Below are positions 36,520 to 37,530 of a stretch of DNA of 64,000 bases, one piece after another. Position numbers and translations under genes: made by a program. The stretch covers positions 2,146-66,145 of the forward strand of contig JBDRUN010000003.1 of NCBI GenBank assembly GCA_039801365.1, given 5' to 3'. The notes under the pieces were generated by a model. That model was not told the DNA's origin and did not search any database. It worked only from the letters and a program-made list of their open reading frames with translations. This DNA is from a candidate division WOR-3 bacterium. Its GTDB lineage: Bacteria > Hydrothermota > Tepidihabitantia > Tepidihabitantales > Tepidihabitantaceae. Within the stretch, counting starts at the first letter, position 1, and each line of letters begins with the position of its first letter.

Positions 36520-36936
36520 TTGTTCCGGATTGGGGTAGCTATGGCGATAATCGAACAGAGAATAAGGTTGGTCGGGTCGAAGGGCAGCAGGGATGTGGTG
36601 GCGCTGTTTGACAGCGGCGCAAGCTATTCAATCATTCAGCCCGGTCTTGCCCGTGAGGTTGCGCGTCCAGAGCGGTTGCCCACCCCCAAGCATTTCGGAA
36701 CCGCGGAGAAGGGGCGCAAGGTTACCGCGAAGGAGTGTGTCCGGCTCGACTTCAAGCTCAACGGCCACACGCTCAGCGACGAGTTCATGGTCGTTCCCGG
36801 CATCACGGAATCGGTCATCATCGGCGCGGCTACGATGCAGAAGTGGCGCATGAAACTCGACTTCGAGCACGACCGGGTAATAGTTGACCCGCGGGTTACG
36901 AAACTGAGACTGCTCAGGCTAGGCAATAGCCAATAG
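36520..36936 (+). CDS. Retropepsin-like (clan AA) aspartic protease
   Basis: Active-site ALFDSGASYSII (D-S/T-G-A), flap and C-terminal IIGAATM motif typical of bacterial retropepsin-like proteins. Confidence 0.75.
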   Translation: MFRIGVAMAIIEQRIRLVGSKGSRDVVALFDSGASYSIIQPGLAREVARPERLPTPKHFGTAEKGRKVTAKECVRLDFKLNGHTLSDEFMVVPGITESVIIGAATMQKWRMKLDFEHDRVIVDPRVTKLRLLRLGNSQ

Positions 36937-36950
36937 GCAATGGGCAATCG
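36919..36950. repeat. Heptamer array (GGCAATA GCCAATA GGCAATG GGCAATC) bridging the protease stop and the four-helix-bundle gene 2 start
   Basis: Direct reading; provides both the TAG stop and the ATG start. Confidence 0.75.
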
Positions 36951-37314
36951 CGTGCAGTCATACCGAGACCTTGAGGTCTGGAGGAAAGCGATTGACCTCG
37001 TTACTGAGACGTATCGGCTATCGCGCAGATTCCCGAAGGACGAAATCTACTCACTTACGAGCCAGATTCGCCGGGCAGCCACTTCGATTCCGGCCAACAT
37101 CGCTGAGGGGTGGGGCCGGAATATGACGAAGGAGTATGTCCAGTTCCTGCGGATTGCCCGGGGCTCTCTACACGAACTGGAGACGCACTTGGAAGTGTCT
37201 TGTAACCTCGATTACTTCGGGCCGACCGAGTTGGACGCTATGCTCGGTAGGACGCACGAAATCAACAAGATGCTCAACAGCTTGATACGAGCCATTGAAG
37301 CCAATGGGCATTAG
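36940..37314 (+). CDS. Four-helix-bundle protein (TIGR02436 / 23S rRNA IVS protein family), paralog 2
   Basis: SYRDLEVWRKAIDLVTETYRLSRRFPKDEIYSLTSQIRRAATSIPANIAEGWGR...SLHELETHL; about 45% identical to the 29164 paralog. Confidence 0.8.
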   Translation: MGNRVQSYRDLEVWRKAIDLVTETYRLSRRFPKDEIYSLTSQIRRAATSIPANIAEGWGRNMTKEYVQFLRIARGSLHELETHLEVSCNLDYFGPTELDAMLGRTHEINKMLNSLIRAIEANGH

Positions 37315-37460
37315 GCAATGGGCGTGGCACAGGAATTAGGCAATGGGCAACAGGCATTGTTAGGCAATGGCTATTGGCTATTGCCTTCCGGAGCGGCTCC
37401 TGCCTACTGGCTTTCCGCGCCGGTCATTGTCTGTCCTGCTATTGGCTCCTGCCTATTGGC
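37306..37460. repeat. Extended degenerate heptamer region (GGCAATGG / GCATTAG / CTATTGG units in both orientations), right flank of four-helix-bundle gene 2
   Basis: ccaatgg gcattag gcaatgg ... ttaggcaatgg ctattgg ctattgc ... ctattggctcctgcctattggctaattggctg. Confidence 0.6.
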
Positions 37461-37493
37461 TAATTGGCTGCGTGCCCCTGGCACGTTTGCTGC

Positions 37494-37530
37494 GACAGAC
37501 AGACAGACAGACAGACAGACAGACAGACAG
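37494..37530. repeat. Tetranucleotide microsatellite (GACA)9
   Basis: Direct reading; about 90 nt upstream of the lipoprotein start at 37623. Confidence 0.9.

Follow-up and report, generated by a model that had tools for sequence, protein, structure and literature searches.

The locus described here raises the question of how a protease gene can take its stop codon, and the gene behind it its start codon, from one and the same array of four heptamers. It lies in a stretch of 64,000 nucleotides of contig JBDRUN010000003.1 from a candidate division WOR-3 bacterium, which was analysed over its full length and is referred to below as the window. The gene behind the protease encodes a four-helix-bundle (FHB) protein of the S23p family (PF05635) and is called FHB2; its paralog in the window is called FHB1. 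The FHB2 element is an S23p cassette of the intervening-sequence (IVS) type located outside rRNA. For the locus as a whole, we consider it probable that an IVS-type cassette, consisting of one FHB gene between inverted arms made of tandem arrays, was inserted behind the protease gene, and that the stem of its arms would be processed. The cassette is present or absent among close relatives, recurs with the same anatomy across phyla, including in IVSs of 23S rRNA, and follows upstream genes in the same orientation. The layout around about one hundred loci suggests a small mobile cassette. The features of the locus, all on the plus strand, are the following.

36541 to 36936, plus strand: retropepsin-like aspartic protease gene (PF13650), the upstream host gene, 100% identical to an NCBI WOR-3 protein.
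36920 to 36948, plus strand: upstream arm of four heptamers, which holds the protease TAG and the FHB2 ATG (Tandem Repeats Finder, inverted pairs I5 and I6, folds).
36940 to 37314, plus strand: FHB2 open reading frame (ORF), 124 aa, PF05635/TIGR02436 (profile scores).
37297 to 37369, plus strand: downstream forward units, degenerate (GCCAATG, GGCATTA, GGCAATG ... GGCAATG), overlapping the 3' end of FHB2 (sequence, motif positions).
37368 to 37465, plus strand: downstream inverted units (CTATTGG CTATTGC C ... CTATTGGCTCCTGCCTATTGGCTAATTGGC), located at 37368-37386 and 37434-37465 (Tandem Repeats Finder, motif positions, inverted-repeat list).
36916 to 37469, plus strand: inserted segment as judged from relatives with an empty site, about 554 bp replacing about 35 bp (alignment with loci L087, L088 and L089, empty, and L092, filled).
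37494 to 37531, plus strand: (GACA)9.5 microsatellite, outside the cassette and before a lipoprotein-like ORF with its ATG at 37623 (Tandem Repeats Finder).

The letters at the junction are ...CTGCTC AGGC TAGGCAA TAGCCAA TAGGCAA TGGGCAA TCGCGTG..., with units in register from 36922 (GGCAATA GCCAATA GGCAATG GGCAATC). Tandem Repeats Finder places the array at 36920-36948, with period 7, 4.1 copies and a score of 44. The protease ORF, starting at 36520 or 36541, ends at 36936 with the C-terminus RLLRLGNSQ, and its TAG (36934-36936) lies within the third unit, while the ATG of FHB2 (36940-36942) lies in the fourth. The initial annotation had proposed that the array supplies both codons, and this was confirmed. 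The two ORFs share one frame, with TAG-GCA alone between them. The final codons and TAG stop of FHB2 (37297-37314, ...EANGH*; GCCAATG GGCATTA G) are likewise coded by array units. Downstream of FHB2, forward units, interspersed with degenerate copies, are found at 37300, 37314, 37339 and 37363, and inverted units at 37372, 37379, 37440 and 37454; the presence of units in both orientations, as first described, thus holds for 37297-37465. In the window, 36 copies of the motif G[GC]CAAT[AG] were counted, compared with 15 +/- 4 in shuffled sequences, and the excess corresponds to three clusters (35287-35308, 36922-36936 and 37300-37363) that contain 11 of the 36 occurrences.

The conserved core of the protease ends at 36915 (...DPRVTKLRLL), and its six-residue tail RLGNSQ and the TAG come from the array. 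The protein matches PF13650 (Asp_protease_2) with 27.3 bits, above the cut-off of 24.3, and is 100% identical to a protein annotated by NCBI as 'retropepsin-like aspartic protease' in a metagenome-assembled genome (MAG) of candidate division WOR-3. Canonical homologs stop at RLL*, at 125 aa; in the WOR-3 clade this stop is lost and the tails are variable. The neighbours of FHB2 are the protease gene, a DUF2283 gene and the lipoprotein-like gene.

FHB2, with 124 aa, has the length expected for its family (about 120 aa) and belongs to PF05635 (134.6 bits, cut-off 33.8, profile positions 1-106 of 106) and TIGR02436 (129.1 bits, cut-off 24); it also matches NF008911 (154.7 bits, cut-off 137). The protein is 100% identical to one from an NCBI WOR-3 MAG. 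Its best solved relative is 2GSC, the Xanthomonas protein XCC0516 (E 8e-24), followed by 2RLD (E 2e-6). The (G)xxRxxxSxxxNxxE motif noted for Xcc0516 homologs (PMC3936711) is present in FHB2 as R45-S49-N53-E56 ('...QIRRAATSIPANIAEG'), with Q42 instead of G at the first position; across 34 aligned members, N53 and E56 never vary, and conservation of R45 and S49 reaches 90% or more. The solved homolog has been described as a homopentamer of four-helix bundles (PMC4990558; PMC10053308). More than 4000 homologs were found at E below 1e-10, with 55-70% identity across phyla; they occur in Nitrospirota, Acidobacteriota, Planctomycetota, Bacteroidota, Firmicutes and several archaeal lineages. Members had previously been reported from within cas operons (PMC3936711) and from insertions in the rRNA of bacteria of the candidate phyla radiation.

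To delimit the cassette, the contigs carrying the closest relatives of the protease (L087, L088, L089, L090, L092 and L093) were compared with the window. L087 shows the gene order of the window (uvrB ... protease ... DUF362 ... acyl-CoA dehydrogenase), and L088 and L089 carry uvrB followed by the protease. The FHB gene is absent behind the protease in L087, L088 and L089. There, about 35 nt separate the core of the protease from GCGTGCCC(T/C)TGGCACG and (GACA)3-6, a sequence that in the window stands to the right of the cassette. Since these syntenic WOR-3 relatives have an empty site, the FHB cassette corresponds to an insertion of about 554 bp (36916-37469). The (GACA)n run predates the cassette and does not belong to it, because it is already present at the empty sites; it had been counted initially, as (GACA)9, among the parts of the layout, and this has to be withdrawn, as the run lies outside the insertion and has three to six copies in the relatives.

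L092 belongs to the same species as the window (uvrB 99.75% identical over 2 kb) and has a filled site that is 98-99% identical to that of the window, with identical heptamer arrays. This independent assembly argues against an artefact of collapsed repeats, which had been named as a possible refutation, and the copy-number variation expected for the array was likewise not seen between the two assemblies. The FHB copy of L092 carries Y8C and a change of Q68 to TAG; therefore the gene is dispensable and decaying there. At the same site, L093 possesses a four-unit array of GGCAATG type only, with no gene, and L090 another four-unit array (CTGTATN).

Several further observations were made at this site. 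The (GACA)n copy number is about 3 and about 6 in L087 and L088, 9.5 in the window, and about 10.5 with GGCA variants in L092; given its position about 90 nt before the start of the lipoprotein-like gene, the run could represent a hypervariable spacer. In the cassette-free relatives, the stop-less protease ORF runs through (GACA)n and ends in tails of the type ...QTDRQTDR.... The protease at 36541-36936 and its counterpart in L092 (3001-3396) are 98-100% identical at the 3' end and through the cassette, but identity falls to about 59% midway along the gene. Between uvrB and the protease, one segment has been swapped for another, with a DUF2283 gene after a 45-aa ORF in the window and two minus-strand genes in L092. 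The mosaic protease and the replaced segment indicate that the region is a recombination hot spot.

A search with phmmer over all six-frame ORFs of the window detected one other family member, FHB1 (29164-29541), which encodes 125 aa and is 40% identical to FHB2.

29097 to 29571, plus strand: FHB1 cassette, with octamer arms around the ORF (inverted pair I4, fold).

The upstream octamer arm of FHB1 (29097-29133) has the unit AGGGTTCN, and the inverted arm (29532-29571, GAACCCTN) overlaps the FHB1 stop. The earlier statement that this gene shares the layout of FHB2 but uses units of another family is therefore correct. Among the inverted repeats within 700 nt, searched over the whole 64 kb, the pairs that bracket FHB1 (I4) and FHB2 (I5 and I6) rank 4th to 6th of 14; I5 and I6 are 22-25 nt long and 80-91% complementary. 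In both the minimum free energy (MFE) and the centroid fold of the FHB2 cassette, 36918-36940 pairs with 37440-37470 (z = -4.9), and in both folds of FHB1 the two arms pair around the ORF (z = -2.5). FHB2 has in addition a predicted local array hairpin at 37290-37470 (-90.3 kcal/mol, z = -5.1), in which the proximal inverted units close on 37297-37369, while the distal units (37434-37465) pair with the upstream arm. Similar to an IVS, the FHB2 cassette thus has complementary termini and a predicted stem that encloses the ORF.

The same layout was searched around other members of the family. Eighty genome loci were fetched, of which 76 had full flanks, and 24 viral-contig and 6 plasmid loci were added, giving 106 in total. 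Inverted arms, defined as an alignment score of at least 24 between the upstream flank and the reverse complement of the downstream flank, were detected in 87 of 106 loci from bacteria, archaea, plasmids and viral contigs (61/76 genome, 22/24 viral-contig and 4/6 plasmid loci), compared with 4/30 mismatched pairs used as control for the viral and plasmid sets. For the genome loci, the median score was 36 for true pairs and 16 for mismatched pairs, and the median arm measures 30 nt (interquartile range 26-42) with 83% identity. A tandem array within 150 nt on at least one side was found for 63 of 76 FHB genes and for 25 of 153 control genes of the same loci; arrays on both sides were found for 30/76 and 1/153, respectively. 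Period 7 predominates, with 43 of 51 upstream and 37 of 42 downstream arrays. The units vary by locus (GCCAATA, AGGGGTC, GGGAATA, CGAGTAG, GGTGACA, CCCTAAA and others), whereas the period and the arm length are constant. The sense strand of the upstream arm is G-rich in 40 of 51 arrays.

The position of the cassettes relative to their neighbours was also consistent. The upstream neighbour is co-oriented at 59 of 63 loci, compared with 114 of 170 background pairs (67%). At 26 of 52 loci the stop codon of the upstream neighbour falls inside the arm or abuts it, and at another 15 it is within 15 nt; the array-made stop of the protease is accordingly a common by-product and no device peculiar to this locus. 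TAG and ATG occur in the array units by coincidence, so that the overlap of stop and start between the protease and FHB2 is likewise a by-product rather than a switch. L081 carries its FHB gene between cas6 and cas4, with GGTGACA arms, and L085 between a parA-like and a parB gene. The plasmid locus of Azospirillum lipoferum (L086) is a genuine 23S rRNA IVS and has inverted heptamer arms (GAGGACG). In the literature, no general rule of heptamer arms at PF05635 genes was found, only the single locus of Coxiella, although other sources may note it; inverted tandem-array arms, mostly of period 7, that accompany the family in most loci are apparently undescribed. A mechanism shared by the two genes of the window, as suggested by the initial annotation, is strongly supported by the 87 of 106 loci; the genes may be targeted to arrays, as it suggested, or the arrays may be the ends of the element.

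The closest known systems are the ORF-carrying IVSs of 23S rRNA in Coxiella burnetii, Leptospira and L086, whose sole ORF belongs to the same family (S23p, PF05635). In Coxiella, the IVS has a 28-bp terminal stem that is cut by RNase III and carries the S23p ORF in its loop, and this ORF is preceded by (GACAGAT)3 with a strain-variable copy number (PMC4990558). Similar to FHB2, the ORF of these IVSs lies in the loop of a stem of about 28 bp formed by complementary termini, and heptamers stand just before the start: (GACAGAT)3 in Coxiella, GAGGACG-type units in L086 and GSCAATR in FHB2. The patchy distribution and the decay of the ORF in some lineages are also common to rRNA IVSs and the FHB cassette. 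There are three differences: the FHB2 cassette lies between protein genes, whereas rRNA IVSs lie in helix 9, 25 or 45 of 23S rRNA; RNase III excision is demonstrated for the latter and only predicted for the former; and FHB2 has the extra downstream array hairpin. The only Rfam matches in the window were RNase P RNA and one tRNA, with no 23S rRNA, and a search of 36850-37650 at a permissive threshold gave no Rfam match.

Based on this analogy, the following course is proposed. FHB2 would be transcribed by read-through from the protease gene, which is probable because no promoter-like site was found between the two genes; the scan for promoters and terminators gave nothing informative. In the transcript, the arms would pair into a stem of about 25-30 bp around the ORF, with the start codon occluded. 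RNase III may then cut this stem as in rRNA IVSs, freeing the FHB message and separating the flanking messages. Such processing would explain why the cassette is tolerated in operons and structural RNAs. The native stop of the protease is lost in the clade, so that the first in-frame TAG of the arm terminates the protease.

A number of results weigh against this account. Transcription of FHB2, formation of the stem and cleavage by RNase III are proposed by analogy. About 18% of the loci have no detectable arms, and in some Bacteroidales loci the arrays on both sides have the same orientation. The arm mismatches show no sense-strand G:U bias (80 sense-compatible versus 93 antisense-compatible, p = 0.36), and the duplex energies of sense and antisense arms do not differ; therefore the complementarity may be kept at the DNA level and not be selected in RNA. 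Selection on the arm stem at the RNA level is accordingly not claimed, since neither the asymmetry of G:U and A:C nor the duplex energies gave a signal. FHB2 has no obvious Shine-Dalgarno sequence, and GTG at 36952 is an alternative start. Measured against transposable elements of the miniature inverted-repeat kind (MITEs) and insertion sequences, the cassette has inverted arms, but no target-site duplication is visible between the filled and empty sites, where the left junction is masked by the array, and profile searches detected no recombinase, transposase or reverse transcriptase domain in the cassette. Because no target-site duplication is visible, 'mobile' refers here to distribution and not to mechanism. 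A DNA search of a phage collection gave no match, an exact look-up of FHB2 in a collection of contigs was likewise empty, and PADLOC assigned neither FHB1, FHB2 nor the protease to any defence-system model.

A second account extends the IVS-type cassette and is not exclusive with it: the FHB protein would act in trans, recognising, maintaining or mobilising its cognate arrays, and solo arrays would be non-autonomous derivatives. The pentameric ring might read one unit per subunit. We regard this as rather unlikely. The precedent would be REPIN/RAYT systems (repetitive extragenic palindromic doublets with their associated tyrosine transposase) and MITEs, in which a gene is flanked by inverted short repeats and the repeat is dispersed as singles or as hairpin doublets of about 100 nt; in such systems, several gene and repeat families are possible per genome. 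The FHB cassette differs from REPIN/RAYT in that it has no HUH/Y1 transposase or recognisable recombinase and no target-site duplication was seen. Its arms are tandem arrays of fixed period and variable sequence, unlike the conserved palindrome of REPIN/RAYT.

In favour of an action in trans, each paralog of the window has its own unit family, which recurs nearby as solo arrays: AGGGTTCN at 13679, 16972, 22347 and 27738 for FHB1, and GSCAATR at 35286 for FHB2.

35286 to 35313, plus strand: solo (AGCCAAT)4 array belonging to the FHB2 unit family, located in the linker of uvrB (33401-35494) before the UVR domain (Tandem Repeats Finder).
22347 to 22377, minus strand: solo array of the FHB1 unit family, in helix P3 of RNase P RNA, with a degenerate partner arm at 22378-22409 (Tandem Repeats Finder).

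The other solo arrays of the FHB1 family are located at 13679-13712, 16972-17000 and 27738-27766. The fetched loci provided 26 cases of arrays at least 300 nt away from the cassette; in 9 of these the unit family is that of the cassette flanks, whereas 0.19 would be expected and 500 permutations gave 2 at most. GGGAATC arrays are dispersed in Xanthomonas campestris, and one abuts the FHB gene XCC0516. The arms are rather fixed in size (median 30 nt, about four units), and the solved homolog is described as a homopentamer. Sharing of units between loci rises with protein identity, from 1.5% of pairs at 40-50% to 14-20% above 60%, and was seen only in the same gene-relative orientation.

Several points count against a role in trans. 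To our knowledge, the family has no catalytic motif and no nucleic-acid-binding activity. Many solo arrays are single arms, the sharing of units nearby could be due to local duplication, and many array families of the window have no FHB gene within 64 kb; this applies to GGTCGGC, GGTCAAGGACAG, GGCCACTG, GAATGCT, CAGATAC/CAGATTG and GATTGCA. The S23p protein of Coxiella is apparently not made in vivo, and the L092 copy is a pseudogene. Proteins that are 70-75% identical can have unrelated units (L017 versus L067); unit specificity, if any, is therefore not simply encoded. A simple code between protein and unit was rejected for this reason, the association being real but weak. As a separate observation, in two loci from Fervidibacter/Armatimonadota with the same flanking context (L013 and L016), the units are CGAGTAG and CGACTGG, with both arms changed together, which indicates either concerted evolution of the arms or replacement of the whole cassette.

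According to a third account, the arrays are ordinary slippage-prone simple sequence repeats (SSRs) that build up in intergenic spacers of this genome, as in Xanthomonas and Nostoc, and FHB genes land or recombine there through portable homology. In Xanthomonas campestris, 186 GGGAATC arrays were described, including 70 convergent pairs, typically with four units or 28 nt (Rehm et al., PMC4692102). Their positions are a few bases past stop codons, within genes or between the genes of operons, and neither a function nor a link to PF05635 was given (PMC4692102). One four-unit array overlaps the start codon of XCC0516, the protein of 2GSC (PMC4692102, S2 Table A row 15). The GGGAATC repeats of Xanthomonas, GGGGAYT of Nostoc and the STRRs (short tandemly repeated repetitive sequences) of cyanobacteria all consist of about four 7-nt units, often in convergent pairs capable of forming hairpins, and share with the arrays of the window their placement past stops, between operon genes, in genes and in RNase P RNA. 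The window also resembles STRR and heptameric SSR genomes in its dispersed tandem heptamer arrays, with RNase P RNA included; its host is a WOR-3 bacterium and not a cyanobacterium. In the papers searched, the Xanthomonas and Nostoc repeats are treated as G-quadruplex-forming SSRs of unassigned role, whereas the units of the window are not G-tracts.

Arrays of period 7 or 8 with no FHB gene are indeed abundant in the window, where at least a dozen sites were found in 64 kb, one of them inside the RNase P RNA gene. The gene-less arrays of L093 and L090 at the site of the cassette fit ordinary repeats as well, and an independent report found heptamers over-represented among bacterial SSRs (PMC4692102). 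Slippage leaves unexplained, however, the reverse-complement flanks in about 80% of loci across phyla, the clustering of arm length at about 30 nt and the presence of the same arms in rRNA IVSs. The contrast between FHB and control genes with arrays on both sides (30/76 versus 1/153) also speaks against it, and we consider this account improbable.

It had further been proposed that a change of repeat copy number would fuse or uncouple the two genes, which would make the array a phase-variation device; this is very improbable. The shared frame with only TAG-GCA between the ORFs would permit it, and in simulations an in-frame fusion of 257 or 264 aa resulted when three of the four units were lost or when TAG became TGG. 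In this respect the proposal stands, but losses of one or two units extended the protease out of frame, and gains changed nothing. The arrays are identical in the two assemblies while the adjacent (GACA)n differs, relatives carry the protease with no FHB gene, and elsewhere FHB genes follow unrelated genes. Among 240 listed homologs of either protein, no fused homolog was found. The reading of FHB2 as Avd, the accessory protein of diversity-generating retroelements (DGRs), is scarcely credible: Avd has a homologous four-helix-bundle fold, a pentamer is described for both, and FHB2 shows weak homology to PF22296 bAvd (21 bits, cut-off 40), NF033474 (29 bits, cut-off 80) and PHROG 3206 'Avd protein of DGR' (E 3e-11), but neither PF22296 nor NF033474 reaches its cut-off, FHB2 has a protease, a DUF2283 and a lipoprotein-like gene as neighbours, and no reverse transcriptase-like ORF and no pair of template and variable repeats (TR/VR) was found among them.

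The dispersed arrays of the window were found in an RNA gene and in coding regions. The RNase P RNA gene (21915-22437, minus strand) has 523 nt, compared with 367 positions of the model. At the tip of P3 it carries a 66-nt insertion that consists of the octamer array at 22347-22377 and the degenerate arm at 22378-22409, and near the 3' end a second hairpin insertion of about 60 nt, which contains (AAGGAAT)2 at 21972-21986. Vioque reportedly described STRR insertions in cyanobacterial RNase P RNA in 1997, and the array insertions of the window are parallel to them. The uvrB array is shared by L092, while L087 and L088 have an unrelated linker of equal length there; the array thus replaces sequence and was not added to it.

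In-frame tandem arrays in coding regions of the window are located at 13679-13712, 16929-17000 and 27610-27647. The minus-strand ORF at 13494-14360, which we take to be YfiH-like, contains an array (...DPLNPRTLGPWNH...), and the ORF at 26608-27738, presumably carbamate-kinase-like, has a C-terminal array. A minus-strand ORF for a membrane protein (16221-18347) also holds an in-frame array. The same ORF contains three copies of a palindromic element, TCCCTCCCCCTTGAAGGGGGAGG, at 17514-17536, 17747-17773 and 17801-17830; they code for SPFKGEG(T/M)KGRG segments and look like another small repeat family inserted in frame. More families of period 7 or 8 were detected at 18310-18426, 21408-21492, 27787-27830 and 32343-32365.

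In seven Bacteroidota loci (L008, L012, L014, L027, L028, L030 and L036), the cassette lies directly upstream of a gene whose product starts with MDFTLKIWRQKNAKAKGKF. We take this gene to be sdhB/frdB-like, which would make it a conserved insertion inside an operon. The arms of these loci are of CCCTAAA/GGGATTA type, identical to plant telomeric repeats, and several have both sides co-oriented.

S23p/four-helix-bundle proteins are widespread and occur in rRNA genes, cas operons and plasmid partition operons. Where FHB genes are found in operons, they are probably passengers and not partners of their neighbours; they would not, for example, be cas accessory genes. For annotation, tails, stops and starts coded by arrays at gene ends are a hazard, and arms of CCCTAAA type may be mistaken for telomeric contamination. 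Heptamer repeats such as STRR and GGGAATC, which have been catalogued for decades, are here linked to FHB genes, and this provides a testable model for both. A tentative and on balance doubtful extension is that PF05635 genes and heptamer arrays form one system across bacteria, archaea and viruses. It would represent a new class of small mobile element, bounded by arrays of about 4 x 7 nt in which the period is fixed and the sequence varies. Its sole protein, a pentameric ring, would act on the arrays, perhaps with one unit per subunit; gene-less arrays and array hairpins, such as GGGAATC in Xanthomonas, the STRRs and those in RNase P RNA, uvrB and further coding regions, would be its non-autonomous progeny. 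If true, this would account for the 30-year-old puzzle of IVSs and S23p and also for heptameric repeats being in excess in the genomes of prokaryotes.

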